From IMG/VR virus record IMGVR_UViG_3300034170_000034, positions 1-38,180 of that record: a stretch of DNA of 38,180 nucleotides; one strand, given 5' to 3'. Below the pieces are notes generated by a model. It was not told the origin of the DNA and did not search any database. It saw only the letters and a list, made by a program, of their open reading frames with translations. Below, piece after piece: positions 2,588 through 38,180 of this stretch (the first letter of the stretch is position 1; every line of letters starts with the position of its first letter). Source of the stretch: a virus. Position numbers and translations under genes: made by a program.

Positions 2588-3031
2588 TCAGATCTCCATC
2601 ATCAAAAGCGGGCCGATGTTGCGCAGACCCTGAGACTCGTAAAGCCGGGTGGTTCCTTCGACGCTCACTCCGGTACCAATGCCCATGTAGATTTGTTTCG
2701 CCCCTTTGAGCTTTGCCCATTCCTTGAATGCTTGGATCAGGCGCAGGGCGATCACGCCATTGCGCTTGGAGGGCTCGACGAACAGCGAATAGTCGTAGGC
2801 GATCAGGTCATTGCTGAACCACTGATCCGTCACAGCGCCCGCCATGCCGCCAACCACCTCACCGCGAACCTCAGCAACGAACACAACGCCATGCCCATTG
2901 ATCAGCTCATGCAGGAAGACGGCCGACTTGTCCGGGCAAAAGCTCATGGTTGAATAGCTGGTGGTGGCGTGTAGCAGCGTTCCCAGCTCGATCAGCCGGG
3001 GAACGTCGGAGTGCTTGGCGGGCCTGATCAT
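2588..3031 (-). CDS. GNAT-family N-acetyltransferase, 147 aa
   Basis: GNAT-like layout: MIRPAKHSDVPRLIEL start, FVAEVRGEVVGG strand, and LFVEPSKRNGVIALRLIQ in the acetyl-CoA-site region. A GAGG SD lies 6 nt upstream. Confidence 0.7.
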   Translation of the reverse strand: MIRPAKHSDVPRLIELGTLLHATTSYSTMSFCPDKSAVFLHELINGHGVVFVAEVRGEVVGGMAGAVTDQWFSNDLIAYDYSLFVEPSKRNGVIALRLIQAFKEWAKLKGAKQIYMGIGTGVSVEGTTRLYESQGLRNIGPLLMMEI

Positions 3032-5203: not shown

Positions 5204-5790
5204 TACCAGTAACTCCCGAAGCGAGCGGCGTACAGGCGTTCATCGCCCAGGGTCTGCGGCGGATCTTCCTGGCCATCCACGGCGCGGGCTCTGCGAAGGG
5301 ATGTTTCGAGCTTCTGCTCCATGGTCTGCTGCATGGCGGCCGATTGAGTGATCGGGTACGCCATTGCGGCGGCCATGGCCAACGTCACCAGCTTCACCAG
5401 GTGCGCGTCCCACGTGTTCTCTACCTCGTTGCGGAATACATAGCGCAGCTCCAGCACGGTGGTATTGGCCTGGATACTGCGACCCTCAACCAGATATTCG
5501 ATCTGCTGACCGATACTGCCTACCTCCAGCACACGCGAGAAGTCTGCCGGCAGCTCAAAGGCATAGTCGTAACCGAACGCCGGCGCAACAGCGTCAGGGG
5601 CCAGTACCGCTCGCTTGATGCAGCAGTTCCACGGGTGGGCGCGCAGCATGTCGTCACGAACAGTTGGGTAAAGGTTGGAGCACAGCTTCGCCCGGTCGAG
5701 GTTCGCCTCGTCGGCAAAGTCGTTGATAGTCTGCGAGCCCAGCATCAGCAGCGCGTTGGAGCAGATCGAAACACCGGTTGCCATCGTCAT
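5203..5790 (-). CDS. Tail tubular protein A (T7 gp11-like), about 195 aa
   Basis: The ORF-track ORF 5203..5964 is trimmed to the ATG at 5790, which is preceded by GGAGG with a 6-nt spacer. Size and position match gp11. The 1-nt overlap TAATG couples it to the next gene. Confidence 0.65.
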   Translation of the reverse strand: MTMATGVSICSNALLMLGSQTINDFADEANLDRAKLCSNLYPTVRDDMLRAHPWNCCIKRAVLAPDAVAPAFGYDYAFELPADFSRVLEVGSIGQQIEYLVEGRSIQANTTVLELRYVFRNEVENTWDAHLVKLVTLAMAAAMAYPITQSAAMQQTMEQKLETSLRRARAVDGQEDPPQTLGDERLYAARFGSYW

Positions 5791-5803
5791 CCCCAACCTC
5801 CGG

Positions 5804-5832
5804 ATAAAAAGACCGGGGCACTCGGCCCCGGT
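5804..5832 (-). terminator. Rho-independent terminator after the capsid/decoration genes (T7 Tphi-like position)
   Basis: Minus strand reads ACCGGGGC-cgagt-GCCCCGGT followed by CTTTTTAT: an 8-bp GC stem plus a T-run. Confidence 0.65.
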
Positions 5833-7234: not shown

Positions 7235-7350
7235 AAGATGCACTCCAATGCAGATAAGGGATTGCCTGCCGGTTGTCCGCATCGCGGGCCGGTATTACCT
7301 GGCGTGCATCGGCTTTGCTGCGCCTCGGGGCTTTCCGGGTATCTGCGTGC

Positions 7351-7387
7351 CATCGCAGGCCGGCCCATTGCTGGGATGCCTGCGATG
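7351..7387 (-). other. Perfect 10-bp hairpin in the scaffold-capsid spacer
   Basis: catcgcaggc (7351-7360) pairs with gcctgcgatg (7378-7387) across a 17-nt loop. There is no U-tract. Confidence 0.6.
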
Positions 7388-7402
7388 TTTGTGCATGGGG
7401 GG

Positions 7403-7422
7403 TGTCGGTTTCCCGACTATTT
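7403..7422 (-). promoter_or_regulatory. Late-operon motif copy 1
   Basis: Minus strand AAATAGTCGGGAAACCGACA. It begins 11 nt after the scaffold stop. Confidence 0.8.
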
Positions 7423-8703: not shown

Positions 8704-10295
8704 GCTGCGGCTCCATGTTGTTTCAGTGCAGCGTCACTGGCCTGCTGCGCCATCATTTGCTGCTGCGCCTGCTGTTGCTGTTCCTGCTGAGCCTGTGCGC
8801 GGTCCTGGCGGATCTTGTCCCGATCGGCAGAGCTGCGGATGATCGAGCCAGGCACGCCCAAGGCCTCACCCTTGAAGCGCTGCGCTTCGTCCATGTCGAT
8901 GTTGTCCATCACTGTGGGGTCAGCCTGAGCAACGATCAGCGCGCCCTGGATGAACGTATCGATAGCCGTCACCTCCTCCAGCTTCTGGGATCGGGCCAGC
9001 GGCGACAGGTAGCGCACGGTGAAGTTGCGACCGGCCAGTGATTCAGGCGCGACACCCAGCACGCCAGCGCGGTAAGCGATGCCGAAGCAACGCTCGATCA
9101 TCGGTTGCAGGTACTCGGTTTGCAGCCGGCCATACACCGGGCCAAGCAACTGGCGGATCAGGTTCACCCGCACATGCACCTCTGTGGCAGTCATCGCCGG
9201 GCCGTCCTGGGCCTGGAGCTGGTCGGCCATCAGGATCTTGCGGATAGAGCCCTGCAGGCGCTGGATCTTGGTCTCGGCGTACTGGAAGTTGGAGCCGCTT
9301 TGCAACGGCTTCATGCTGTCCACGCTGTTGGCCACGATGATCTTGCGCGGCCCGACCTTGACGGTGCGCGGGTTCAGCACGCCGTCATCCTCAGCAATCC
9401 ACATGCCAGCGATGGCCAGGTCACCGGCCGCCAGGTCCATGCGGCACAGTTCGTTCAGGGTGCGCGCGTCAGGCAAGGCGTCGAACACCGGGCCCACCGC
9501 GTACACGCTGTCTGGAATCATCATCCAGCGCGGCACGACGACGGGCATTTCGTGGTAGCCCGACTCGCTGACCAGCTTCTTGGCCGCCACCTCGACCTTG
9601 CATGACGCCACCGGCATGTTCTTCGCCAGCTTGGCGTTGACCATATGAGTGGTGCGCGGGTAGATCGCGTGAACGAACTTGACCGGCTCCTGCGGCTTGT
9701 CCTTGGCCAGCTTGCGCGTGCCGTCGCTCAGGTTCTCTTCTCCGAACTCGTTTACTGCCTGCTCGGCGGTGAGCGTGTATTCCCGGTACACGGTGTCGAT
9801 CTTGCCGCCAGCCTTGGACGCTGAGGCGTACACGCTCGCAATAGGCCACAGATCGAACGTGAAGCCGCCCTTCTCCATGTCCTGATCGATGTACAGGGCA
9901 AACCATCCAGCGCACACGACGTCAATCAACCCCTCAAAGGCGGCCGCGTCGAAGTTGGATGCGTGGATGTTCTGCCAAAGGATGTCGGCCGAGTCATCCA
10001 GCCAGCGGCGCTCGTCCTCGCTTTCCTGGCCAACGTCCATGCCGAACCACAGCGAGTTGGCCGGGGTCAGGCCCGACATGATCCCGGACGACAGAATCCG
10101 TGCCGCGTCCGTGGTGGTGCCATCGATCATCCTGGCTTTGCGCATCTGCGCCTCCAGGGCTGTGATCTGCTCCGTACAGAACCCACTCCCACGGATCGGA
10201 TAGCTGTGGTCGAAGCAATCGCGCCAGACCGTCTCGTGCGGTGAGCGGAGTGACTTCAAGGTGCTCAGCGTTTTGGCGATCTGGTCTGCGTTCAT
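8700..10295 (-). CDS. Portal (head-tail connector) protein, T7 gp8-like, 531 aa
   Basis: Its size and its position upstream of scaffold and capsid fit a portal. The Q-rich C-terminal tail (QAQQEQQQQAQQQMMAQQ) resembles T7 gp8. Confidence 0.8.
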   Translation of the reverse strand: MNADQIAKTLSTLKSLRSPHETVWRDCFDHSYPIRGSGFCTEQITALEAQMRKARMIDGTTTDAARILSSGIMSGLTPANSLWFGMDVGQESEDERRWLDDSADILWQNIHASNFDAAAFEGLIDVVCAGWFALYIDQDMEKGGFTFDLWPIASVYASASKAGGKIDTVYREYTLTAEQAVNEFGEENLSDGTRKLAKDKPQEPVKFVHAIYPRTTHMVNAKLAKNMPVASCKVEVAAKKLVSESGYHEMPVVVPRWMMIPDSVYAVGPVFDALPDARTLNELCRMDLAAGDLAIAGMWIAEDDGVLNPRTVKVGPRKIIVANSVDSMKPLQSGSNFQYAETKIQRLQGSIRKILMADQLQAQDGPAMTATEVHVRVNLIRQLLGPVYGRLQTEYLQPMIERCFGIAYRAGVLGVAPESLAGRNFTVRYLSPLARSQKLEEVTAIDTFIQGALIVAQADPTVMDNIDMDEAQRFKGEALGVPGSIIRSSADRDKIRQDRAQAQQEQQQQAQQQMMAQQASDAALKQHGAAA

Positions 10296-10495
10296 GCGCC
10301 GAGTGTCCTTTTCCCTTGATCAAGTACTGACCCAGCAGCGCCACCGGTGGAGAGCAGGCTGCTCTCGGCCTTGCGCTTCTTGCGGGTGGCGGTCTCTTCG
10401 TTGGCCTTCTGGGCGGCTAGGTCGGCGGCCTTCTGTGCCGTGACGGCTGGATCTTCGGTCTGAACTACCGCTGGCTTGCTTGGCTTGCTCCCCAT
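10292..10495 (-). CDS. Small basic hypothetical protein, 67 aa
   Basis: AAGGAG SD and an ATGA overlap with the portal start. Confidence 0.55.
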   Translation of the reverse strand: MGSKPSKPAVVQTEDPAVTAQKAADLAAQKANEETATRKKRKAESSLLSTGGAAGSVLDQGKRTLGA

Positions 10496-10499
10496 GGTG

Positions 10500-10874
10500 T
10501 TACTCCTTCACTGGTGGAACAGGGCAGAGCCAGCCTTCGCTGGTCAGCACGGGCTGCTTGATCGTGGTTGCGTCGATGGCGGAAGACTTGGCCTTGGTCG
10601 CAGCCTTTGCCTCGGGCTGTTGCTCGGCCTGCTTCACGAACGGCTCACCGCCGGCAATCAGGCGCTCAGCCTCGGCCTCAGCCTGTTCCTTTGCGCCTTC
10701 ACCGGTAGCGATGTAGTCGCTGAACCAGTCGTCAGCAGCAGTCGACCAGATCTTCCAGCGGCCACCGCCGTTGTGTTTGGCAACGAACAGGGCTGGTGCT
10801 GGGGTTTCAGGGGCTGGCGCGGTATTGGCGTTCAAGTCGCCGGGTGTCTGCGGGGTGAACTCTGGTGCGGGCAT
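10500..10874 (-). CDS. Hypothetical protein, 124 aa
   Basis: First ORF after late motif copy 2; GC3-biased. Confidence 0.55.
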   Translation of the reverse strand: MPAPEFTPQTPGDLNANTAPAPETPAPALFVAKHNGGGRWKIWSTAADDWFSDYIATGEGAKEQAEAEAERLIAGGEPFVKQAEQQPEAKAATKAKSSAIDATTIKQPVLTSEGWLCPVPPVKE

Positions 10875-10878
10875 TGGT

Positions 10879-10912
10879 CTGGCCTCGGTGGTTGTTGATC
10901 AACGAGGGCCAG
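10879..10912 (-). other. Hairpin enclosing the SD of the 124-aa gene
   Basis: Minus strand CTGGCCCTCG-ttgatcaacaaccac-CGAGGCCAG, with one bulge, ending 4 nt before the ATG at 10874. Confidence 0.55.
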
Positions 10913-10928
10913 AATCAATGGAGAGGGC

Positions 10929-10948
10929 TGTCGGGTTCCCGACTATTT
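10929..10948 (-). promoter_or_regulatory. Late-operon motif copy 2
   Basis: Minus strand AAATAGTCGGGAACCCGACA. The TAG inside the motif is the Rz stop codon. Confidence 0.8.
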
Positions 10949-11386
10949 CGCTGGTGTGCGCTTGCAGGTGAGTGCATACGCCTGAAGGCCAATCACTTGA
11001 GCGGTGACTTTGGCGTTGGCTGCAACGAGGTCGGCATAATCCTGTCGAGCATCTGCTGCAAGTTCGGGGGCGGCTGCATCAGGGCTGCCGGCGGGCTGGG
11101 GATTGGCTGGCACACAGGCGGCGCGGACGTACACGCGCTTAACGCCAGCGCCGAGATCAGCAACAAGCTGCGGCTTGGATTGTTCAGCATTGTGGATTGC
11201 CTCTTGGTACTGGGCGTCGATGGAATCGCGGACGGTTAGGTCCTGCTCGTATGCTGCTGCCTGGCCCTGGAGCGTGCCCACTAGCTCGTTGGCTGTATCC
11301 AGGCTGGTGCTGACATGATCAAGACGCCACAACGCCAGCAGCAGGCCAATGGCGAGCGCGGCGCAGATGCCAAGGATGATCTTCAT
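10943..11386 (-). CDS. Rz: i-spanin (Rz-like), 147 aa
   Basis: N-terminal TM segment (MKIILGICAALAIGLLLALW), a coiled-coil, and a KRVYVRAAC motif. It is last in the lysis cassette and contains an embedded lipoprotein ORF. Confidence 0.8.
   Translation of the reverse strand: MKIILGICAALAIGLLLALWRLDHVSTSLDTANELVGTLQGQAAAYEQDLTVRDSIDAQYQEAIHNAEQSKPQLVADLGAGVKRVYVRAACVPANPQPAGSPDAAAPELAADARQDYADLVAANAKVTAQVIGLQAYALTCKRTPAK
10993..11190 (-). CDS. Rz1: o-spanin (Rz1-like lipoprotein) embedded in Rz in another frame, 65 aa
   Basis: LLLISALALSAC lipobox-like signal followed by a proline-rich mature part. Confidence 0.75.
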   Translation of the reverse strand: MLNNPSRSLLLISALALSACTSAPPVCQPIPSPPAALMQPPPNLQQMLDRIMPTSLQPTPKSPLK

Positions 11387-11805
11387 GCCAGCGCCATCCG
11401 CACGCCTTCATCGATCTCGCCCTTGATGTACGGGTTGTATCCGTTCTCGTGCCGGATGATCGCGGTCACCATGGGGGTAAGCATGGCCGGACTGCGTAGG
11501 TCGATGTTCGCGTAGGAGGTCACACTCATGGCCTGGGCCACCGCTTCGGCGTAAGCCCTGGTGTTGTTCTCGGTGGCAGGCGCCCAGCGGCCAATGATCT
11601 GGGCCACAGTCTTGAGCCCATGCTTGGCCTGGTAGGTCAGCAGCAGCTTGGCCAGGGCACGGATGCCGTTCTCGGGAGAGTCGAACCGGGCAAACCGTTT
11701 CTCAAGCACCGGGTTGGGCGGTAGCTGACCGCGCCACTTGTTCGCCGGCACGTAGTCGATGTTGCCGGGGTTGTTGTTGCGGATGCCACGGGATTGAGCG
11801 GACAT
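11383..11805 (-). CDS. Endolysin (lysozyme-like peptidoglycan hydrolase), 140 aa
   Basis: Lies between the holins and Rz. Carries the GIRNNNPGNI motif that I associate with a family of small phage muralytic enzymes. ATGA overlap with Rz. Confidence 0.7.
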   Translation of the reverse strand: MSAQSRGIRNNNPGNIDYVPANKWRGQLPPNPVLEKRFARFDSPENGIRALAKLLLTYQAKHGLKTVAQIIGRWAPATENNTRAYAEAVAQAMSVTSYANIDLRSPAMLTPMVTAIIRHENGYNPYIKGEIDEGVRMALA

Positions 11806-11819
11806 GGTTGGGTCTCAGG

Positions 11820-12047
11820 CTATTGGCCGGCTGGAGGTTCTTGATTGCGGAGCTTCGATTGCTGAACAACCCTGGCAATGGCCACACCAACGCTGAGCAC
11901 CATGTTGACGATGGCGAACACCAGTGGGTCGACTGCACCCTGGAACACCGACCATGCGGCTGCGGCTGCGTTGAGGACGGCACACGCGATAGCCAACTGA
12001 ACGCTGGTCATGCGCCAGAACTTGCGCCACTCGGGTATGAGCTTCAT
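11820..12047 (-). CDS. Holin/antiholin-like membrane protein, 75 aa
   Basis: Two hydrophobic segments and a charged C-terminus, inside the lysis cassette. Confidence 0.6.
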   Translation of the reverse strand: MKLIPEWRKFWRMTSVQLAIACAVLNAAAAAWSVFQGAVDPLVFAIVNMVLSVGVAIARVVQQSKLRNQEPPAGQ

Positions 12048-12343
12048 GGGCGTAACTGATCGCGCAATGCTCGACGGCGATCAGCGCTCTCTCTAAGCCG
12101 CTCTGCACTCTCGGCATGCTCACGGCGATCCCTGCGCACCTGGAAGTAAAGATTGGTCAGCAGGCCCAGCACCGCAATGACAACGCCAGACACGCCAATC
12201 CAATTCACCTGGGAGAAGAAACCAACAAGGCCCACCGCGCCGCCCGTGAGCATCCCTTTGCTGGCGACTGACGCGCCAACGACCTCTACGATGCTCTCGG
12301 GTGCTGGGTTGGCCATACTGCTACTCCTATCTGGAGCCTTCAT
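12044..12343 (-). CDS. Holin-like membrane protein, 99 aa
   Basis: Hydrophobic core (GGAVGLVGFFSQVNWIGVSGVVIAVLGLL) and a highly charged C-terminus. GGAGG SD. First gene after the terminator. Confidence 0.6.
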   Translation of the reverse strand: MKAPDRSSSMANPAPESIVEVVGASVASKGMLTGGAVGLVGFFSQVNWIGVSGVVIAVLGLLTNLYFQVRRDRREHAESAERLRESADRRRALRDQLRP

Positions 12344-12360
12344 GGGTGGCCTCCAGGGTC

Positions 12361-12391
12361 AAAAAAAAGCCCAGCGCGTGGTGGCTGGGCT
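12361..12391 (-). terminator. Strong rho-independent terminator between the early nin-like genes and the lysis cassette (tR'-like position)
   Basis: Minus strand AGCCCAGC-caccacgc-GCTGGGCT followed by TTTTTTTT. Confidence 0.8.
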
Positions 12392-12421
12392 GCGATGACG
12401 GTAAGAGTCGTCTGGGTCAGG

Positions 12422-12441
12422 TGTCGGAATCCCGACTATTT
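12422..12441 (-). promoter_or_regulatory. Late-operon motif copy 3
   Basis: Minus strand AAATAGTCGGGATTCCGACA. Its TAG is the stop of the 133-aa gene, and the terminator stem begins 30 nt downstream (12391). Confidence 0.8.
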
Positions 12442-12837
12442 CCGACCTCCACACCAGAACTCGTACAGTTCCGTAGTCATCTTACTGATGTAGACGCCGT
12501 CATCCTGGTCAGTGTTATAGCCTTTCTGGTGCGCTAGAGCCTCAAACGCGTCCCTGCTTCCGCGATACCCATCCACAAGAGTTGGCAGCGCATCAACATC
12601 GTTACCAATAACGTATACGGCACCCCTGAAACCCATGCCGCTGTGCATCGGCTCACGCCTGTAAATCACCTCTTCAACCGTAATGCACTCCGGCACACCT
12701 GGACCTTCGTAGCGCGTGGCACGGGTTTTTGGCAGCACGGCACAACGGATACTCGGCACACCCTCTAGGACTGACATGCGCACGCCATCCTTCGGGCCAC
12801 CAATCAGCAAAACGTTTTCATATTTCATACGAGCCAT
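12436..12837 (-). CDS. Hypothetical protein in the lambda Q position, 133 aa
   Basis: Trimmed to the ATG at 12837 (MARMKYENVLLIGGPKDG). I recognise no Q-like zinc motif. The function is unknown. Confidence 0.55.
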   Translation of the reverse strand: MARMKYENVLLIGGPKDGVRMSVLEGVPSIRCAVLPKTRATRYEGPGVPECITVEEVIYRREPMHSGMGFRGAVYVIGNDVDALPTLVDGYRGSRDAFEALAHQKGYNTDQDDGVYISKMTTELYEFWCGGRK

Positions 12838-12844
12838 CCCATGT

Positions 12845-13105
12845 TTAGGCCTTCGAATGATAAGCCCACCAGTCACCAATCGCGACCATGGGCAATGATT
12901 TACGGTCCCGGCCTGTAGCCTGAACCCAGAACTGAACAAGACGCTCGCCCTCGGTGTATCGAGGTTCAGCGCCCTGCTTCCAACCAATCAGTGTCGACCG
13001 AGGCACCTTGATCACCTCCGCCGCCGACTGGATCGAATACCCAGCACGCAGAATCCCGTTGATGACCTGGAACCAGTCAACGCGCACCTCGGCCTGGGCG
13101 AGCAT
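12845..13105 (-). CDS. Small HTH DNA-binding protein (NinH-position), 86 aa
   Basis: GYSIQSAAEVIKVPRSTLIGWKQG reads as a helix-turn-helix. Confidence 0.55.
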   Translation of the reverse strand: MLAQAEVRVDWFQVINGILRAGYSIQSAAEVIKVPRSTLIGWKQGAEPRYTEGERLVQFWVQATGRDRKSLPMVAIGDWWAYHSKA

Positions 13106-13107
13106 GG

Positions 13108-13443
13108 TCAGGCGCTCACTGCACGCGACACAGCGTCAGCAATGGCGCTACGCGGGTAGCATGACAACTTCCCCCGGCAACGGCTGTCGCCGCACGCACA
13201 AAAGCGAATATCGAACCAACTGTCGCGGCCCTCGGGCGGAGTGAGTAACTCCCAGAAGCCTGTAATCACTGGCGCGGCTCCACGGCCATATGTTTCGGTA
13301 GTGGCCGACTCTTTGAACAACATCCGCCCATATGCGCGACCATATGTGACGAGCTCTGTCCACAGTTCCTCCCACTCGGCACGTATTTGAGCCATTTCCA
13401 GCTCATCCCGGATGCGCAACTGCTCCATCGTCGGGACTTTCAT
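13108..13443 (-). CDS. Hypothetical protein, 111 aa
   Basis: ATGA overlap with the NinG stop, and GC3 bias. Confidence 0.55.
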   Translation of the reverse strand: MKVPTMEQLRIRDELEMAQIRAEWEELWTELVTYGRAYGRMLFKESATTETYGRGAAPVITGFWELLTPPEGRDSWFDIRFCACGDSRCRGKLSCYPRSAIADAVSRAVSA

Positions 13444-14069
13444 GCAGCACCTCCAAACGCGTGCGCGCGCGAGGCACAGTTGGTATCAGCACCCTTCCCC
13501 ACCAATTCCTTCAACATGGCCCTGTACCTCGCTTTGATCTGCTTCAAGTCGTCGATGGTGTAGCGCTGTGGTTCGTGTGGGCCTTCCAGCCATGCAAGCT
13601 TTTCGGCCCCGATCTTCTGCAAAAGACGTGGGCGGTAACCGAGGATGTTCCCGGACTTGCCCATGTTGCAGTTGCGGTTGCACTGGCGATGCACGTTCAG
13701 TGGTTCGAAGCGCAGCTCTGGGCATGAGCCGACTGTGCGGTAGTGCCCGGCGCAGTACTGGACATCGGCCGTGGTTCCGCACGATATGCATGGTTGCCCG
13801 GCGTCCCTTGCTCTCACGTAGGCGTTGAAAGCCTTCTGTGCCTCGTCCATGTACTGGGGTTTGGTCTTAACGCGCTCCTTGGCCGCTCTCAGCTCCTTCC
13901 TGCCTACATCAGCGAGAGCCTTGCGGGCTTTGTTTTGATTCACGTCCTTGATGGCGAGACCACATGGGTAGCTGCATACGGCTTGACCCAGGCGCTGAGC
14001 GACGAACTTCTCGCCGCATGCTGGGTTCTTGCAGGTCTTCGGGCGGGGCTGTTTGGCTGGGAGGCTCAT
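13440..14069 (-). CDS. ninG: NinG/Rap-family recombination endonuclease, 209 aa
   Basis: CKNPACGEKF...CSYPC zinc cluster, CAGHYRTVGSCPELRF, and NVHRQCNRNCNMGKSGN...YR, as in lambda NinG. Confidence 0.8.
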   Translation of the reverse strand: MSLPAKQPRPKTCKNPACGEKFVAQRLGQAVCSYPCGLAIKDVNQNKARKALADVGRKELRAAKERVKTKPQYMDEAQKAFNAYVRARDAGQPCISCGTTADVQYCAGHYRTVGSCPELRFEPLNVHRQCNRNCNMGKSGNILGYRPRLLQKIGAEKLAWLEGPHEPQRYTIDDLKQIKARYRAMLKELVGKGADTNCASRAHAFGGAA

Positions 14070-14506
14070 GCAGCCTTCCTTTCGCCGTAGATGGCGTACA
14101 TCAGGTCATCAGGATGCGGGAGCAAGAGCTGCAGGTGTTCGGCGCAGTAGGCGTCCAGGCGCTCCAAGTACTCGGTCATCTCAGCGATGGTGAACTTACG
14201 AGTCTTGGCCCGCCCCACGCGGTATTGGGTGCCGTCTGGCAGACGAACAGGATGCACCTCGGCGGGCCACAGCTTCGAAACCAGGATCTCGTGCCACTCT
14301 TCTGAGCTGGCGAGCTGGCCGAAGGAATCGCGCAGGTGCGACTGGATCAGGCCGTTCCACATCCACAGCAGCTTGTTCTGTGCGTCACTGCGCTTGCTGC
14401 GGATCTCGACGATGGTCAGCTTGCGCGGCTTGGACAGGTCCAGGGCTGTCAGGTAGCCGATCAGCCGTGTGCGATCAGATTCGTTGCGGAGCATGAGGTC
14501 AGTCAT
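14066..14506 (-). CDS. ninB: NinB/Orf-family recombination mediator, 146 aa
   Basis: Trimmed to the ATG at 14506. Carries the KRSDAQNKLLWMW motif, and its length equals that of lambda NinB. Confidence 0.75.
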   Translation of the reverse strand: MTDLMLRNESDRTRLIGYLTALDLSKPRKLTIVEIRSKRSDAQNKLLWMWNGLIQSHLRDSFGQLASSEEWHEILVSKLWPAEVHPVRLPDGTQYRVGRAKTRKFTIAEMTEYLERLDAYCAEHLQLLLPHPDDLMYAIYGERKAA

Positions 14507-14682
14507 GGCTTCGAACTCCACGTTTGCCACATAGCGATTGCCATAATCACCGTGAACGGCCATACCAAAACGAGGAGCGCGAGCCCGAAGTACTCCCACA
14601 CCTCACGCTTTACTTTCAGGGCCAAATCAACCCCAAGCGCCCATCCAAGAACGAATACAGCGAAAAGCGCGTAGGCGATCAT
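14503..14682 (-). CDS. Small two-TM membrane protein, 59 aa (below the ORF-track cutoff)
   Basis: ATGA overlaps at both ends. Translates as MIAYALFAVFVLGWALGVDLALKVKREVWEYFGLALLVLVWPFTVIMAIAMWQTWSSKP. Confidence 0.55.
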   Translation of the reverse strand: MIAYALFAVFVLGWALGVDLALKVKREVWEYFGLALLVLVWPFTVIMAIAMWQTWSSKP

Positions 14683-15392
14683 GTCCGTTGCTCCGTGGGT
14701 TTCTTGCCGAACTTTGCCATCAGCAACGCGCGGGCTGACTGCCCATCAGTCGGGATGCCTTGCTGGATGATTCGTTCTTGGGTTTTTTGGTCTGCCAGTT
14801 CGTTGGCCAATTCGAAGGCGGTCTTCTGGCTGTCGTGGCCGATGCCGGTCAGGATCTTGCCGTCGAGCGGCTGGCCTTCCTGGGCGCGGCGGATCACGAT
14901 CGCGTAGTTGTGATCGAAGCGCTGGCGCAACCCCTTGTCTTCCTGCTTGGCGCTGCGCAAGTCGAAGATCCCGGTCTCGTTGGCAGCGATGCGCACACCG
15001 TCGTGGCTGTAGACGCCCATCAGGGCTTCCATCCAGGCTGCTGGAGCATTTGGCATGCCGAAGTCTTCAGGGCTTGGCACGCACATGGCGATGAATTCAC
15101 CAACGCTTGGCGCAAATGGCTTCTTGAGCTTGCGGCACTTCTGGATACCGAACTCGATCTGCTCCAGGGTGCGGATGCCGACGTCGGCAAATTCCTTGAT
15201 CCATTCGGCCTTGGCGGAGTCGAGCGCTTCGGTGGATGGCCAGGCCTGGCGCCATGCTGGGAAGATCCCACGCAGCCGGCGGAACAGGTCGTTTACCACC
15301 TCGGCGGTTTCGTGAGTGACGTGCACCGGCTCAGATTGAATCGCTGGCGGCAGGTTGCCGATGGTTGCGAGAAGCTGGCTGACCTGCTTCAT
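14679..15392 (-). CDS. P: Replication protein P homologue (helicase loader), 237 aa
   Basis: VNDLFRRLRGIFPAW...AEWIKEFADVGIRTLEQIEFGIQKCRKLKKPFAPSVGEFIAMC aligns by eye with lambda P INGVFSQLLATFPAS...RRQWVLAFRENGITTMEQV...RPFLPSPGQFVAWC. Confidence 0.8.
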   Translation of the reverse strand: MKQVSQLLATIGNLPPAIQSEPVHVTHETAEVVNDLFRRLRGIFPAWRQAWPSTEALDSAKAEWIKEFADVGIRTLEQIEFGIQKCRKLKKPFAPSVGEFIAMCVPSPEDFGMPNAPAAWMEALMGVYSHDGVRIAANETGIFDLRSAKQEDKGLRQRFDHNYAIVIRRAQEGQPLDGKILTGIGHDSQKTAFELANELADQKTQERIIQQGIPTDGQSARALLMAKFGKKPTEQRT

Positions 15393-16093
15393 GGGCGCAC
15401 CATCAGGTTATTTGCCCAGTCGGTGCTGTCGAAGTCCGGCTCGTTGCGGTTTGGCAGGCGGTGGACGTTGCTGGTGGTCTTGTCCGGGAAGATCCCGGTC
15501 CAGCCGTTGGAAATTGAGTTGACCAGCACCTGGTCCGGGGTGGCGTGCCCTTCCAGCGCCTTGGCCTGCTGCTCGCAGCTCTTGGCGGTCAGTGGCTTGT
15601 GGATCTCACGGCGGTGTTGGCACCAATCGGCCCAGACTTGGGCGGACACGTTGGCTGGCTTGGCAGTGAGCGGATCGAACTTGCATGGCTTCGGCTTCAC
15701 CGGTGCGGGAGCGGGAGCGACATGCTTTTGATCTTGTTCTGTATCTGTATCTGTATCTGGGGGCGTTACTGTAACGTTACATGACTGTTTCTTCTTTGCA
15801 CGATGGGCTGCAACCCGCGCCCTGCTTGAGTCGGATACGAATTGGCGACGGTCCCAAGAGGTAGGCATGCAGTCCTCATCAATGAGGCCTTTGCTCAAGA
15901 AAAGCGCCTTTGTGGTGGCCCACTCTTCGTTACTGATACGCAGCTGAAACGCTATCTCCGTTTCATGTAACGTTACACCGTCGTTACTGCAACGAAGGCA
16001 GAGCAGCATGACGAAGCGGCGCTGATCAGCCTCGCTCATCATCTGGACTTTCGGGTCAGTGGCGAACTCGCCATACATCCGGAACCAATCCAC
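15389..16093 (-). CDS. Replication initiator-like protein (DUF1376/YdaU-type N-terminus, O-position), 234 aa
   Basis: MDWFRMYGEFATDPKV start. Lies upstream of P and overlaps it. Confidence 0.6.
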   Translation of the reverse strand: MDWFRMYGEFATDPKVQMMSEADQRRFVMLLCLRCSNDGVTLHETEIAFQLRISNEEWATTKALFLSKGLIDEDCMPTSWDRRQFVSDSSRARVAAHRAKKKQSCNVTVTPPDTDTDTEQDQKHVAPAPAPVKPKPCKFDPLTAKPANVSAQVWADWCQHRREIHKPLTAKSCEQQAKALEGHATPDQVLVNSISNGWTGIFPDKTTSNVHRLPNRNEPDFDSTDWANNLMVRP

Positions 16094-16095
16094 GG

Positions 16096-16404
16096 CTATT
16101 CCTCCTGCAACTGATCAACGTTCTGGATCAGATCCATGTACCGCTTGGCCTGGTGCAGAAGGGTTTCAATATCCCGCTTGTCGAAGCACTGCATGGCCTT
16201 CGGCACGACCTTCAAGTCGAGTACGGCCAGGATCTGGCAGAACTGCTCAAACCGTTCCGGCTTCATGCGGCTGATCGTTGCTTCGTCAACACCGACTGCA
16301 TGCGCCACAGGAGCATTGCCGACCGATGCAAGCTGCTGCATGAGAACGGCGTAGTTCTTGCGGGCCCTTACGGTCTGTTCTTGGCTTAATGGGCTCGTCG
16401 ACAT
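16096..16404 (-). CDS. cII: CII-like transcriptional activator, 102 aa
   Basis: AHAVGVDEATISRMKPERFEQFCQILAVLDLKVV compares closely with lambda CII AEAVGVDKSQISRWKRDWIPKFSMLLAVLEWGVV. Confidence 0.85.
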   Translation of the reverse strand: MSTSPLSQEQTVRARKNYAVLMQQLASVGNAPVAHAVGVDEATISRMKPERFEQFCQILAVLDLKVVPKAMQCFDKRDIETLLHQAKRYMDLIQNVDQLQEE

Positions 16405-16406
16405 GA

Positions 16407-16598
16407 TCAGGCCGCCGACTTGGAGGCCCGATCAGCCTGTTGGTGCAGGCTCTCGATTGCCTTGCCGAGCTGGTAGCTGACCATTGCGCCATTGGCTGCA
16501 CGCGAGATAGTTGGCTGTGTGGTACCGCACTTTTCAGCAACCGCTGTCTGCGACAGACCGAGCTTGAATAGTCGATTCAACATCTCTTGAATTGTCAT
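16407..16598 (-). CDS. cro: Cro-like HTH repressor, 63 aa
   Basis: Trimmed to the ATG at 16598. HTH reads LSQTAVAEKCGTTQPTISRAANG. Divergent from cI. Confidence 0.7.
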   Translation of the reverse strand: MTIQEMLNRLFKLGLSQTAVAEKCGTTQPTISRAANGAMVSYQLGKAIESLHQQADRASKSAA

Positions 16599-16629
16599 GT
16601 TGGGAATCCTATGAGGTTTTGCATAACAA

Positions 16630-16658
16630 ATCATACGAATCTGCATGGCGCAATGCAA
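16630..16658 (-). promoter_or_regulatory. PR-like promoter for the cro operon
   Basis: Minus strand TTGCAT, a 17-nt spacer, then TATGAT. The operator overlaps the -10. Confidence 0.6.
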
Positions 16659-16682
16659 TAGAATTCTCATAATGCATTTACG

Positions 16683-16688
16683 TATACT
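16683..16688 (+). promoter_or_regulatory. PRM-like -10 (TATACT) giving a near-leaderless cI mRNA
   Basis: TATACT ends 9 nt before the cI ATG. There is no usable SD and only a poor -35. Confidence 0.4.
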
Positions 16689-16697
16689 GGTGGACTG

Positions 16698-17354
16698 ATG
16701 GATACCGCTGAGCGCTTGCGCGCAAAAATGATCGAACTGGGCTTGAATGAGAGCCAACTCGGCAGACGGTCCGGCGTTCCCCAGCCGACGATAAACCGGA
16801 TACTTTCCGGTGAAAGTTCAAGCCCCAGAAGACCTACGGTCGAGAAGATCGCCAGGGCGTTACGGGTTTCGCCCGACTGGCTTATGTTCGGCACTGGAGA
16901 AGATAAGTTCGACGCCAACGTAGAGCTGGCTACAGGGCCAACGCGGTACTATGAGTACCCGGAGATAAGCTGGGTACAGGCAGGGGTGGCAGCAGAGGCA
17001 ATGGATCTGTTCAATGTCGGAGATTTTGAGGCGACGCACCCGTCTGATGCATGGGCGGGGCCGAATGGCTTTTGGTTGAAAGTGAAAGGACCTTCAATGA
17101 CTTCGGTCAACGGTATGAGTTTCAGCGAAGGAATGCTGATCCTAGTAGCACCTGGAGGTGACGTTGAAAATGGCCAGTACGTTGTGGCAAAACTGATCGA
17201 TACAAATGAGGCAACATTCAAGCAATTCATTTGGGATTCGGGCAAAGCCTACCTAAAGCCACTCAACCCAGCGTTTTCAACGGTTGAGGTGAACGAGACA
17301 TGGTTGGTGGTTGGGCGTGTGGTTGATGCCAAATGGCCTAGATCGGCGCTGTAG
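16698..17354 (+). CDS. cI: CI-like repressor (XRE HTH plus S24 LexA-type autopeptidase), 218 aa
   Basis: HTH ESQLGRRSGVPQPTINRILSG. The C-terminal domain has GPSM (Ser) and VVAKL (Lys). Confidence 0.9.
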   Translation: MDTAERLRAKMIELGLNESQLGRRSGVPQPTINRILSGESSSPRRPTVEKIARALRVSPDWLMFGTGEDKFDANVELATGPTRYYEYPEISWVQAGVAAEAMDLFNVGDFEATHPSDAWAGPNGFWLKVKGPSMTSVNGMSFSEGMLILVAPGGDVENGQYVVAKLIDTNEATFKQFIWDSGKAYLKPLNPAFSTVEVNETWLVVGRVVDAKWPRSAL

Positions 17355-17380
17355 CGCTATAAATAAATGGAGTTAGCTGC

Positions 17381-17881
17381 ATGCGTTGGCGCCACATAAT
17401 TTTGGGCTTGGTGTTTTCCCCGATGCTCTGCATCGCGAATGAAGGTGATGGCCGGCTGGTAAGGAGTGGGAATGCATACTCCGGCGCCAAGTCGGTTTCC
17501 TGGTCACCCAGCAAGCCGGCGGCCGAATCTTTTGAGTTCCGCGTTAGTGCGTTCTACCCAAAAGGCCAGGAGAATCCGTACTCCTATAAGGTTGAGCTCT
17601 CAACCGAGGCCAACTACTGGCAGTACCTAAAATGCGAGGGATCGGACAGGATTACAGCGGTTTCCGAGGATGGGCAGAGCGTCGTAACCATTGAGCTGCA
17701 GTACTCAAACAGCTTTGAAGATGGGCGCAGCAGGGAAACATTCAGCGCCACGGCCCCATTGCGGAGCATCAAAGCCCTGGAGAAGTCGAGAGCGATTATG
17801 TTTTCCATATGCGGCACCAGCGGGAATATCACGCGCGATGCATCAGAAGGTGCGGCCCAGGTGCTTAAAGCCGCGCTTTAG
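17381..17881 (+). CDS. Secreted moron protein of unknown function, 166 aa
   Basis: Signal peptide MRWRHIILGLVFSPMLCIA. GGAG SD. Visibly lower GC. Lies downstream of cI and upstream of a terminator. Confidence 0.65.
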   Translation: MRWRHIILGLVFSPMLCIANEGDGRLVRSGNAYSGAKSVSWSPSKPAAESFEFRVSAFYPKGQENPYSYKVELSTEANYWQYLKCEGSDRITAVSEDGQSVVTIELQYSNSFEDGRSRETFSATAPLRSIKALEKSRAIMFSICGTSGNITRDASEGAAQVLKAAL

Positions 17882-17900
17882 CCGATATTTGTAAGCGAAC

Positions 17901-31659: not shown

Positions 31660-33273
31660 CTAGTAGTCCACTTGAACCTCATGAACGCCCGCATCTGGAC
31701 GCCAATTGTCTCGACGGGTCTCTGTCGGTTTCCCGACTATTCGGCCAATTCGGACTGGGGTTTGGGCGATAGCGCCGGCACCGGAGTCGATGTAGTCGTC
31801 CTCCTGGTTGTTCACTGCCGGGTTGAAGTCGCGCATCTGGTCCCAGATTGTGTTGAGCACATCGACGTGCGCCCACAGGAAGCGGGCCGACAATGGGGAT
31901 TCGAAGGCGTCGAGGATGCGTTTCTGCTTGTTGATAGTGGAGTGCTCTTCCCCTACCCCGCACCCGGTGCCCTTGAGCGCCTGCTTTAGGAGGGTTGGCG
32001 CGAAACCTCCGGGGCCGTTGGTCTCGATGACCACGCGGGGGATCTGATGCTTTACCACCAGCTCTCGGATCTGGTGTACCTGGCCGCCAATGATCTGATC
32101 CTTTGGGCCGAACTCCGCGATTTCCCCGGTCAGGCCCACGGCCAGGTGCCAATAGAGCTGCCCGCGCGCGTCGGTGAGCATGAGCGAGAAGGCCGATGCA
32201 TCCGACTTGATCTTGCCCAGGGAGCAGTCCCAGTACGCTACGGCGCCGACGATCTGCGTCGAGCCAAGGTACATAGCTGCCGCGTCGTTGGCGTAACGCA
32301 TGACCGGCTGCGCGTCGTAGGGAATGATGCGTTCAGGGTCCAAGCGAACCTCCGTGACGGGTTTCGAGTGGAGCTGATACTGCGAATCCCATTCGTTGAT
32401 GGTGCGGGTTTTTTTGCGGCGCTTCTCCAGTTCCAGCAGGTCGAACCGATCCACCCAGGCTATGCCGGCGTAGCAGTCGATCAGCGTACCGGGCGGGGAA
32501 AAGAAGGCGATACCAGTCTTGGTGAGCTGGTAATCCTTGCCCAGCACCAGGGCGCGGGCATGCTTGCCGATTCCGGAGAACACGAATTCAGGAACGAACG
32601 GCACGTCGTAGGCAATGAGCCTGGCATCCTCGATTCGATGCTCGCGGGCGAACATGCGGATGGTCAGGCAGTCGGCTCCCAGGGCTTCCTGCTCGTCGTA
32701 CAGGCTGTCATGGGTGTGCGGCGTGCCAACGAACAGCAGGCGTGCGCCGGGCACCATGATGTGGATCTGCTCGCCCAGGCGGTATCGCAGCTTCTCGCGC
32801 GCCTCGGGCGTGGCGATGTTCTTGGGCACCTCAACGTCATCGTTCTGGCACTCGTCGGCGCGCGAACTAGTGATGTTCGACATGATGCCGGAGGCCTGCA
32901 TGGACGGGTTTCGTTCATCCACGGCGCCAGGTACCCACCAGAACGCGGTGTCACCCTTCATCTTGCGATGGGCATCCATGGTCAGCGGGTGCCGCATCAG
33001 GATCGCCTTGGTGTCCCGGCTGGTCTTGTAGGCCGTGGGGTCGGTGTCACCCTGGTGCAGGATTCGATAAGTCGGGTTCAGGTAGAACCGCCAGGCGTTG
33101 TACAGCGCCAGGATGGTGGACTTGCCGAACCCACGGAAACAGCGAAGCACCGCGTGGTCACCGCGATGCTCAAGCCAGTGGCAGGCCCGGATATGGATGT
33201 CCGGCACCTCCCACTTCATGCGCTTTGCCCATATAAGGAAGAACGCCAGAAACGATATGTACTTAGTGGACAT
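31660..33273 (-). CDS. terL: Terminase large subunit, 537 aa
   Basis: Walker-A-like RGFGKST. The N-terminus (WAKRMKWEVPDIHIRACHWLE) resembles T7-group maturase B. It follows a small-subunit candidate. Confidence 0.8.
   Translation of the reverse strand: MSTKYISFLAFFLIWAKRMKWEVPDIHIRACHWLEHRGDHAVLRCFRGFGKSTILALYNAWRFYLNPTYRILHQGDTDPTAYKTSRDTKAILMRHPLTMDAHRKMKGDTAFWWVPGAVDERNPSMQASGIMSNITSSRADECQNDDVEVPKNIATPEAREKLRYRLGEQIHIMVPGARLLFVGTPHTHDSLYDEQEALGADCLTIRMFAREHRIEDARLIAYDVPFVPEFVFSGIGKHARALVLGKDYQLTKTGIAFFSPPGTLIDCYAGIAWVDRFDLLELEKRRKKTRTINEWDSQYQLHSKPVTEVRLDPERIIPYDAQPVMRYANDAAAMYLGSTQIVGAVAYWDCSLGKIKSDASAFSLMLTDARGQLYWHLAVGLTGEIAEFGPKDQIIGGQVHQIRELVVKHQIPRVVIETNGPGGFAPTLLKQALKGTGCGVGEEHSTINKQKRILDAFESPLSARFLWAHVDVLNTIWDQMRDFNPAVNNQEDDYIDSGAGAIAQTPVRIGRIVGKPTETRRDNWRPDAGVHEVQVDY
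31723..31742 (-). promoter_or_regulatory. Late-operon motif copy 4, inside the terL 3' end
   Basis: Minus strand GAATAGTCGGGAAACCGACA, read in frame as R-I-V-G-K-P-T. Confidence 0.75.
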
Positions 33274-36136: not shown

Positions 36137-36166
36137 GGCTTGCTCCTGGTTGAATGGGAGCAAGCC
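36137..36166 (-). other. Perfect 10-bp hairpin sequestering the SD of the 846-aa gene
   Basis: Minus strand GGCTTGCTCC-cattcaacca-GGAGCAAGCC, then C, then ATG. Confidence 0.6.
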
Positions 36167-36180
36167 TATGGTTCGGTGGC

Positions 36181-36200
36181 AGACGGTTTCCCGACTATTT
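36181..36200 (-). promoter_or_regulatory. Late-operon motif copy 5
   Basis: Minus strand AAATAGTCGGGAAACCGTCT. The upstream TAA stop (36199-36201) overlaps the motif's first two A residues (TAAATAG). Confidence 0.75.
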
Positions 36201-38106: not shown

Positions 38107-38180
38107 TTGACGATCACCATGATGGGTTGTTGGGTATCCGGATCGATCTGTACCCGGCCGGCGTTCAACAGGTAATAGGA
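38054..38180. repeat. Terminal overlap copy 2, identical to 1..127
   Basis: Same 127 nt as the window start. It is most simply an assembler k-mer overlap of a circular or terminally redundant molecule. Confidence 0.95.

Follow-up and report, generated by a model that had tools for sequence, protein, structure and literature searches.

The window, that is, the whole stretch of DNA analysed (38,180 nucleotides; IMG/VR virus record IMGVR_UViG_3300034170_000034), has identical ends, with bases 1-127 repeated at 38054-38180, and it therefore corresponds to one complete genome of ~38,053 bp with self-overlapping ends. This is the genome of a temperate podophage, in which a lambda-like early region is combined with a T7-like structural module. 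The early and lysogeny genes include those of a cI-like repressor, an integrase and homologues of NinB and NinG; the lysis genes are two holin-like genes, an endolysin and an Rz-like spanin; the structural genes encode a T7-type portal (PF12236), a scaffold-like protein, the major capsid protein and the tail tubular proteins A and B, and they are complemented by genes for large virion proteins, the terminase large subunit and the tail fibre. All late genes are on the minus strand, and annotation of the gene content detected no phage RNA polymerase gene in the window.

Regarding its relatives, INPHARED held no close cultured one, and the only match at the DNA level was to the endolysin; the capsid protein is ~39% identical to the capsids of HTVC010P-type pelagiphages and of the Yersinia phages YeP4-6. 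Among public sequencing runs, none contained more than ~20% of the sampled words from this phage, and the RNA runs among those listed were wastewater metagenome samples, mostly kept as contigs and one as raw reads. Finally, a search of the whole window against Rfam returned no family at threshold.

The region considered here is the junction between the early right operon and the lysis cassette, where, on the minus strand, the genes of two small proteins (p86 and p133) are followed by a copy of a 20-bp motif, a hexamer resembling a -10 element, an intrinsic terminator (t_lys) and the first holin gene (Table 1). The terminator consists of the arm AGCCCAGC (12391..12384), the loop CACCACGC and the arm GCTGGGCT (12375..12368), followed by a run of eight T (12368..12361); six of the eight base pairs of the stem are G-C. 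Beyond the early right operon, a scan of the minus strand from ~16700 down to 12361 gave t_lys as the only strong terminator-like site, and therefore it would be the element that stops early transcription from reaching the holin gene. The first-pass annotation had already described this succession, with the 133-aa gene ending inside the motif and the 8-bp stem with its T8 tail, the GGAGG and the holin ATG coming after it, and our analysis confirmed it; the 17 nt that it placed between the T-run and the Shine-Dalgarno sequence are right as the distance from the T-run to the ATG, and wrong as the distance to the Shine-Dalgarno sequence itself.

Table 1. Position of the features discussed in the text and, for the motif sites, number of contexts found in related phages
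Feature	Position	Strand	Remarks	Contexts in relatives
p86, 86-aa HTH protein	12845..13105	-	conserved gene at the Q position in relatives	
p133, 133-aa protein	12837..12436	-	TAG at 12438..12436; lies between p86 and the predicted late promoter	
Motif copy 3, AAATAGTCGGGATTCCGACA	12441..12422	-	holds the TAG stop of the 133-aa gene; ahead of the lysis cassette; site between p86 or p133 and the lysis cassette	~37
-10-like hexamer GACTCT	12409..12404	-	13 nt past CCGAC of motif copy 3	
Predicted transcription start C-A	12397..12396	-	+26/+27 from the end of the motif core; sigma-70 geometry	
Terminator t_lys	12391..12361	-	8-bp stem, 8-nt loop, T8; consensus scan and RNA folding	
Shine-Dalgarno GGAGG of the holin gene	12354..12350	-		
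Lysis cassette	10943..12343	-	holin, second holin-like gene, endolysin, Rz-like spanin	
Holin	12044-12343	-	ATG at 12343	
Second holin-like gene	11820-12047	-		
Endolysin	11383-11805	-		
Rz-like spanin	10943-11386	-		
Motif copy 2	10948..10929	-	hexamer GATTCT 10916..10911; ahead of the 124-aa gene and portal block; site between Rz and the 124-aa gene	37
Motif copy 1	7422..7403	-	hexamer AAACAT 7390..7385; site between the scaffold and major capsid genes	57
Second late-region intrinsic terminator	5832..5803	-	after the capsid and 153-aa genes, before tail tubular A	
Motif copy 5	36200..36181	-	hexamer TAGGCT 36168..36163; ahead of the 846-aa virion protein gene; site between the 635-aa and 846-aa genes	17
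Motif copy 4	31742..31723	-	hexamer GACAAT 31710..31705; site ahead of the tail fibre gene	30+

The repeated motif and its downstream hexamer

The motif, AAATAGTCGGGAAACCGACA, is present in five copies in the window, against 0.02 matches expected by chance when up to three mismatches are allowed; all copies are on the minus strand, that of the late genes, and each stands ahead of a late gene block. Copy 2 includes the stop codon of Rz, and copy 4 sits in the terminase large subunit gene, at its 3' end. In IMG/VR, a pattern scan found the motif in at least 119 stretches, and 168 distinct sequence contexts were taken from them; these loci came from an exact pattern search, so that the invariance of the motif core among them is partly a matter of ascertainment. 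The positions of the motif are syntenic across the relatives, with the same five sites, each before a late gene block. As for its composition, the motif includes the dyad GTCGG-N4-CCGAC, which can be drawn as a hairpin and in which the four central bases vary (AAA, AAC, ATT, AAT or ATC after the G); over the 168 contexts, the central AAA is the most variable part of the motif. Our search of the literature found no account of this sequence, or of late activators in phages of this kind.

Alignment of the five copies of the window revealed, always equally far downstream of the motif, an A and a T with a separation of four bases. This pattern extends to the related phages: a hexamer nAnnnT lies exactly 13 nt downstream of the motif in the 168 distinct contexts, with A at position +15 after CCGAC in 168/168 and T at position +19 in 168/168, both positions being outside the motif search pattern. 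The flanking positions vary freely, and 26 different hexamers occur, with the consensus GAnnMT. The A and the T of nAnnnT correspond to the two bases that vary least in sigma-70 -10 elements; if the hexamer serves as such, the motif would extend from about -45 to -27, in place of the -35 element and where a class II activator site would be. The geometry of sigma-70 promoters would then set the transcription start at +26/+27, a prediction that fits the C found at +26 in 73% of the contexts and the purine found at +27 in 55%.

The first-pass annotation had reported no sigma70-like -35/-10 pair at 12392-12480, and with this our consensus scan agrees, having found none from 9000 to 17900, that interval included. 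The further claim, that there is no late promoter, is contradicted: the motif and the invariant nAnnnT, at a constant spacing, are built like an activator-dependent promoter, and the same motif and hexamer recur before four late blocks that have no terminator. Multiple copies with a shared upstream element, a weak -10 and no -35 are typical of activator-dependent phage late promoters such as those of Mu and P2, and all of these traits are present here; upstream of the motif, no conserved sequence occurs across the contexts. Most likely, the late promoters of the phage have this repeated 20-base motif as their core, and its designation in the first-pass annotation as the obvious cis-acting candidate is supported.

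Other assignments of these elements were examined and rejected. A sigma-54 or ECF-type reading of the motif was discarded given that the expected -12/-24 or CGT signatures are absent, and the -10 region of the 168 contexts has no ECF-type CGT or TCnnA signature. CCGACA, taken as a -35 element, would leave a spacer of 12 nt only; a promoter for a phage RNA polymerase was rejected because no such gene is encoded; a start within the 5' arm of the terminator is impossible, since such a start would be at least 17 nt from the hexamer; finally, AATAGT within the motif as a -10 is disfavoured by the copies of the motif in YeP5.

Regarding the level at which the motif operates, base pairs were counted in an alignment of 30 distinct sequences of the lysis copy, comparing the dyad with the terminator helix. 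Of the five pairs of the dyad helix, four are invariant and the fifth departs only by loss of pairing, with 0 compensatory changes in the 30 sequences; the terminator helix in the same alignment has 3 covarying pairs, one of which, for instance, reads C-G in 18 and A-U in 10 of the sequences. The pairing is broken too in further forms of the motif, such as CCGTC and GTCAGG. Because the dyad lacks compensatory changes while the terminator stem covaries, the motif is read as DNA: in these comparisons it behaves as a duplex-DNA sequence, and the terminator behaves as a true RNA hairpin.

p86 as candidate regulator

The protein at the Q position was taken to be the 133-aa one in the first-pass annotation, and the distribution of the two genes points to its neighbour instead. 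The gene of p133 was found in 7 related loci only, against 34 for that of p86, which often abuts the motif; moreover, in all loci that cover the junction of early and late genes p86 comes ahead of the first motif, with its TAG stop inside the motif in several of them and with a variable extra gene, such as p133, in between elsewhere. p133 had no Pfam or NCBIfam hit, and its only PHROG hit was to a family of unknown function; this protein is best described as an accessory insert, and not as Q-like.

p86 matches no Pfam or NCBIfam family at threshold, and the members of its family score weakly against generic HTH models; its PHROG hit is to an HTH family named 'transcriptional repressor', and those homologues that bear a name are all called 'hypothetical protein'. 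The family is large, with 264 clusters at 50% identity (E <= 1e-10). The AlphaFold model of p86 is confident (pLDDT 88), and its nearest folds are Xre-type HTH domains, including the small controller C proteins of restriction-modification (R-M) systems, all of them weak matches (Foldseek E 0.05-0.5, TM ~0.5); in addition, the family has the conserved terminal motifs DWFxVI and DWWAYH, at the N- and C-terminus. PDB sequence searches with p133 or p86 gave no Q-family protein of the lambda, 82 or 21 type, which bears out for both proteins the earlier statement that no Q homologue can be recognised. Q21, lambda Q and AlpA were absent from the PDB sequence searches with p86 and from its top 50 Foldseek matches, and p86 had no Pfam hit to the Mor/C or Ogr families.

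The association of p86 with the motif was also found when starting from the protein alone, as homologues retrieved in this way are accompanied by the motif and an in-register hexamer in prophages of Pseudomonas, Ectopseudomonas and Stenotrophomonas. The Yersinia phages YeP4-6 encode a p86 homologue that is 45% identical, and YeP5 has four copies of the motif on the late strand, with the hexamers CACACT, TAGCCT, TAAAAT and GACCAT at +14..+19; the four sites are before the gene for the small terminase subunit, the lysis genes, a 124-aa-like gene and the capsid gene (with a terminator upstream). Apart from the virion, packaging and acetyltransferase module, the window phage has a single protein in common with YeP5, and this is p86. 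The most diverged homologues of p86 (L132, L135, L136, L138 and L143) are in what look like decayed prophages, on which a de novo motif search was uninformative. The late promoters are probably switched on by a small, uncharacterised phage DNA-binding protein, for which p86 is the best candidate, and we infer that it binds the motif and activates the host polymerase there.

Terminators and the proposed control of the lysis genes

A hairpin followed by a T-run within 110 nt downstream of the motif occurs in 24 (strict rule) or 31 (looser rule) of 164 distinct contexts, and all the contexts with this feature precede a lysis cassette. The first lysis gene behind the motif and the terminator is of at least three unrelated types (MKAPxRS holin, LNATQD and MAEPSS), and when the first motif is followed by the 124-aa or the portal gene there is no terminator (L077, L098, L115, L131, L133, L011 and L049); in L025, a lysis cassette relocated between the 635-aa and 846-aa virion genes keeps the motif, the hexamer and the terminator. 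The hairpin of the relatives begins 30-39 nt after CCGAC, which corresponds to 3-12 nt after the predicted start; in the window, t_lys begins ~5 nt past it. No alternative RNA fold able to disable the terminator in late transcripts was found, and the MFE structure keeps the terminator. The terminator gate directly ahead of the lysis genes, proposed in the first-pass annotation, is conserved in ~31 distinct cases, and the putative promoter, the terminator and the holin gene form a conserved unit.

The second terminator of the late region precedes the gene of tail tubular protein A, whose true ATG is at 5789. It is kept in 37/42 distinct relatives, with several stem sequences that are all fully paired; no motif occurs downstream of it, so the tail genes depend on read-through. 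Its conservation argues that the late polymerase would still be sensitive to terminators, and that this phage family may use leaky terminators to set expression levels.

According to the mechanism that we propose, a late promoter would consist of the 20-bp motif and of nAnnnT 13 nt downstream, and the host sigma-70 polymerase would use it only with a phage factor on the motif; this factor would be p86, which comes from the end of the early right operon and whose action would resemble that of a class II activator. The five promoters would serve the lysis genes, the block from the 124-aa gene through the scaffold, the capsid gene onwards, the block from the 846-aa virion protein through the terminase, and the tail fibre. 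Motif copy 3 would be the lysis promoter, with t_lys 5 nt past its predicted start, and the terminator may have two roles: it would end the early operon, keeping early transcription off the holin and the endolysin, and it would let only the read-through fraction of the late transcripts express the lysis genes, with the effect that lysis is throttled and delayed. To the reading as a whole, with p86 activating the five late promoters and t_lys both insulating and throttling the lysis genes, we assign about an even chance.

A second set of hairpins touches on the position of the start. In the classes of sites ahead of the 124-aa gene, the 846-aa protein and the capsid gene, the 5' arm of a hairpin lies between the hexamer and the predicted start; in the first two classes the 3' arm covers the Shine-Dalgarno sequence, and the pairing is kept through sequence changes, as in GTCCTCG/CGAGGAC of L131 and in an unrelated 11-bp helix of L068. 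The hairpin of the 846-aa-protein class has a matched C/G insertion in its two arms. In this class, matched indels in the arms shift the register of the alignment. With a start at +27, the hairpins over the Shine-Dalgarno sequence would form only in transcripts reading through from upstream, which is fold-back inhibition, a phenomenon described for IS10; this would agree with a plan common to the late blocks, each of them being protected from transcription that arrives from upstream. The conserved hairpins could instead mean that the true start is further upstream, and in that case they would always form.

The presence of a strong T8 terminator within ~5 nt of an activator-dependent promoter is unusual outside antitermination systems. 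Moreover, at the lysis loci the terminator invariably comes after the motif, and in no case does it replace the motif on the upstream side; a Q-like gate would have this appearance, which counts against the activator reading. In such a gate, akin to those of Q and AlpA, p86 (with or without another phage factor) would load at the promoter motif, transfer to the RNA polymerase and confer resistance to terminators, and the lysis genes, along with all those beyond the capsid terminator, would be expressed only after p86 has accumulated. The order of promoter-like element, terminator and holin, kept in ~31 distinct relatives and moving with the lysis cassette, agrees with it, as do L082, which keeps the terminator downstream of the motif despite another terminator upstream, and the tail genes, which are behind a conserved terminator without a promoter motif of their own; there is also a precedent in Pseudomonas, where AlpA at PalpB bypasses tB before a holin gene (PMC7969949, PMC9371919). 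What speaks against it is that p86 has 86 aa, a plain Xre-type HTH fold and no similarity to Q21, lambda Q or AlpA in the PDB sequence searches or among its top fold matches; that inspection by eye of the first ~12 nt past the predicted start, where CATCG(C/A) is conserved, found no -10-like pause element of the kind that Q and AlpA need (PMC9371919); that four of the five motif copies have no terminator to overcome; that there would be no point in keeping the capsid terminator if terminators had no effect on any late polymerase; and that there is no sigma-70 -35/-10 pair for constitutive initiation. We consider this gate unlikely, and the same holds for its corollary, that p86 may be the founding example of a minimal (~86 aa) DNA-loaded factor, one that would make the late promoter and a terminator-resistant RNA polymerase.

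The remaining explanations place the signal, or the factor that reads it, elsewhere. In the model of the first-pass annotation there is no late promoter, late expression comes by read-through from the PR-like promoter, and the motif would be a nut/put-like RNA that suppresses the terminator; this is extremely improbable, even though the motif admits a boxB-like drawing, a 5-bp stem closed by a GAAA loop, is upstream of the terminator on the same transcript, and has no consensus promoter close to it. An RNA-level role of the stem is contradicted by the 0 compensatory changes of the dyad, against 3 covarying pairs in the terminator, with variants that break pairs (T-T, A-C); the loops (GAAA, GAAC, GATT, GAAT and GATC) are mostly not GNRA, no terminator comes after four of the five copies, the Rfam search gave no hit, and the invariant A and T 13 nt downstream are left unexplained. 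Furthermore, six IMG/VR relatives and the Yersinia phage YeP5 have a terminator directly upstream of the capsid-gene copy of the motif, and a terminator ending just upstream of a motif copy is a layout for re-initiation, incompatible with an RNA antitermination signal. Read-through from PR is unlikely as the main late route also because the late blocks carry their own copies of the motif. A start inside the motif, with AATAGT as the real -10 and the downstream nAnnnT as a sigma-dependent pause element like that of lambdoid PR', has a slim chance: AATAGT agrees with TATAAT in 4/6 positions, the A at 2 and the T at 6 among them, and the hairpins that begin right after the downstream hexamer would always be transcribed, but in YeP5 two of the four copies have TTTAGT and TTTGGT, losing the essential A, while nAnnnT is kept in 4/4; the sequence upstream of AATAGT has no conserved -35 element or activator site, and a pause element at +20..+25 would stand at a greater distance from the start than those of lambda, 82 and 21, or that of PalpB at -1..+5 (PMC9371919). 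It is very improbable, finally, that a host factor or an alternative host sigma reads the motif and that p86 has another job. This would suit the loose resemblance of GGGAAAC, at about -35, to ECF-type -35 elements, and the binding of p86 to the motif is our inference; against it, the motif travels with p86 across Pseudomonas, Stenotrophomonas and Yersinia, in genomes very unlike in composition, p86 is the only non-structural protein common to these phages, the -10 region is devoid of the ECF-type CGT or TCnnA signature, and the central AAA is the part of the motif that varies most.

Relation to known systems and significance

The locus resembles the PR'-qut-tR' region of lambda in two respects: the early right operon ends with the regulator gene, and a cis DNA element at the late promoter precedes an intrinsic terminator and the holin gene, in this order. 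The differences are that the window phage lacks a Q homologue, a consensus -35/-10 pair and, as judged from the predicted start, a recognisable pause element, that it has five putative promoter copies instead of one, and that its conserved internal terminator suggests a late polymerase that is not terminator-proof.

The system of Pseudomonas aeruginosa formed by AlpA and PalpB-tB-alpBCDE is similar in its phage origin and in having a DNA element at the promoter, a terminator, a holin and an HTH regulator. AlpA binds GGGACG between the -35 and -10 of PalpB and bypasses the terminator tB before the holin gene (PMC7969949, PMC9371919); for this it needs a -10-like pause element at -1..+5 of PalpB (PMC9371919). 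Its residues are numbered to at least 142, and its N-terminal ring, in a Q21-like fold, enters the RNA exit channel (PMC9371919). In contrast, the motif AAATAGTCGGGAAACCGACA of the window comes without a -35 element, and p86, with its 86 aa, is about half the size of AlpA or Q.

The proposed late promoters resemble those of other temperate phages in their architecture. In Mu (C, Mor) and in P2, P4 and 186 (Ogr, Delta, B), late promoters share a partly dyad-symmetric element, a weak -10 and no -35, and depend on a small phage DNA-binding activator made earlier in infection; the putative promoters of the window likewise share a conserved upstream element, a weak -10 and the lack of a -35. p86, however, is unrelated in sequence to Mor/C or to the zinc-finger Ogr, and both the sequence of the motif and its predicted position (about -45 to -27) differ; at most, p86 may work like Mor/C or Ogr, without being a member of either family. 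As for the terminator, the systems of Mu and of P2, P4 and 186 are not known for one directly behind the lysis promoter.

The R-M controller C proteins are activators whose binding site, a dyad, adjoins the -35 region or overlaps with it. C.AhdI and C.Esp1396I are small Xre-type HTH proteins of 75-85 aa and are among the nearest folds of p86, yet the match is weak (E ~0.15, TM ~0.5), p86 has DWFxVI and DWWAYH in addition, and there is no sequence relationship.

Regarding the layout of the transcription units, class III of T7 has the phi10 promoter, the capsid gene 10, the leaky terminator Tphi and the tail tubular genes 11/12. The window phage has the same order of portal, scaffold, putative promoter, capsid, terminator and tail tube A/B, with a further putative promoter before the tail fibre; the capsid-gene copy of the motif presumably stands at the position of phi10, and the terminator at 5832..5803 at that of Tphi. 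Unlike T7, the window phage has no RNA polymerase of its own, and its promoters are apparently read by the host polymerase with a phage HTH factor.

In conclusion, late promoters that depend on a small phage DNA-binding protein are of a known kind, and what would be new here is their combination with a conserved promoter-proximal terminator at the lysis genes. The outcome of this work is a proposed 40-bp promoter architecture, with a candidate regulator from a protein family that carries no annotation. If p86 were an antiterminator, it would define a new mechanistic class; if the Q-like gate is true, it would be a functional analogue of Q and AlpA built on a plain Xre-type HTH, across a large family of temperate T7-like podophages. 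This family is common, with at least 119 IMG/VR stretches that have the motif, prophages in many species of Pseudomonas and in Stenotrophomonas, and the Yersinia phages YeP4-6; it keeps the T7 layout of transcription units without a phage RNA polymerase, and we found no description in the literature of how its late genes are switched on. The promoter and its regulator could serve as a tight orthogonal expression switch in Pseudomonas, and the module of promoter, terminator and holin would be a compact natural device by which the lysis genes are first silent and then throttled.

Genome ends and gene content

The two ends of the window share an exact overlap of 127 nt (1-127 = 38054-38180), and the window represents a single, complete phage genome of ∼38,053 bp; the overlap reflects either a circular assembly or direct terminal repeats. 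Regarding gene starts, the mechanical calls for two genes, those of the tail fibre and of tail tubular protein A, probably lie too far upstream. For the tail fibre the likeliest start is ATG 31634 (minus strand; MAVPEG), with GGGGG ahead of it, and for tail tubular protein A it is ATG 5789 (minus strand), preceded by GGAGG and located downstream of the terminator listed in the table. A GNAT-family acetyltransferase gene (2588-3031, minus strand) sits amid the virion and internal-protein genes, and Yersinia phage YeP5 has a homologue at the same place.

Features of the late region and of the YeP5 comparison
Feature	Position	Strand	Remark
Strong intrinsic terminator	5803-5832	minus	separates the 153-aa gene from tail tubular protein A
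Capsid gene 5' UTR	7283-7384	minus	long leader, highly conserved
Hairpin before 124-aa gene	10881-10910	minus	3' arm holds the gene's Shine-Dalgarno sequence
133-aa gene (p133)	12436-12837	minus	between p86 (86-aa HTH protein) and the late promoter
Hairpin before 846-aa gene	36139-36166	minus	3' arm holds the gene's Shine-Dalgarno sequence
YeP5 lysis-gene motif copy	L145 (MK733263.1) 1940-2016		near-consensus -10, TAAAAT

Overlap of the proposed promoters with upstream genes

Coding sequence and the proposed promoters, whose core is the 20-bp motif, overlap at the 3' ends of genes: the stop codons of Rz, p133, and the 635-aa gene lie within the copies at 10929-10948, 12422-12441, and 36181-36200, respectively, either as the TAG in AAATAG or as a TAA immediately before it, and motif copy 4 falls entirely within the terminase gene. 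In the case of p133, the TAG of the motif doubles as the stop codon. This gene is an accessory, moron-like insert; most relatives do not have it, and some carry other, unrelated genes in its slot.

RNA structures ahead of late genes

As for the two Shine-Dalgarno hairpins, the 5' arm of each follows the -10-like hexamer and precedes the predicted transcription start, and relatives preserve the pairing with different sequences (L131, L068, and cases of matched indels); they look like devices for the fold-back inhibition of read-through transcripts. The capsid leader contains the segments CGCAGGC, GCCTGCG, and CGCAG, whose possible pairings exclude one another; all three change jointly in the related stretch L094 (CACAGGC, GCCTGTG, and CACAG); this pattern suggests alternative structures that would be set by the position of the transcript start.

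The terminator before tail tubular protein A consists of ACCGGGGCC-GAGTG-CCCCGGT followed by CTTTTT, and occupies the place of Tphi in T7. Of 42 relatives, 37 have kept it; the stem occurs in several sequence versions, all fully paired, and no motif copy follows the terminator.

Finally, at the lysis-gene motif copy of YeP5 the next element is a hairpin of the fold-back type instead of a T-run terminator, and therefore the terminator gate, namely the intrinsic terminator between motif copy 3 and the holin gene, seems particular to the Pseudomonas-type relatives.
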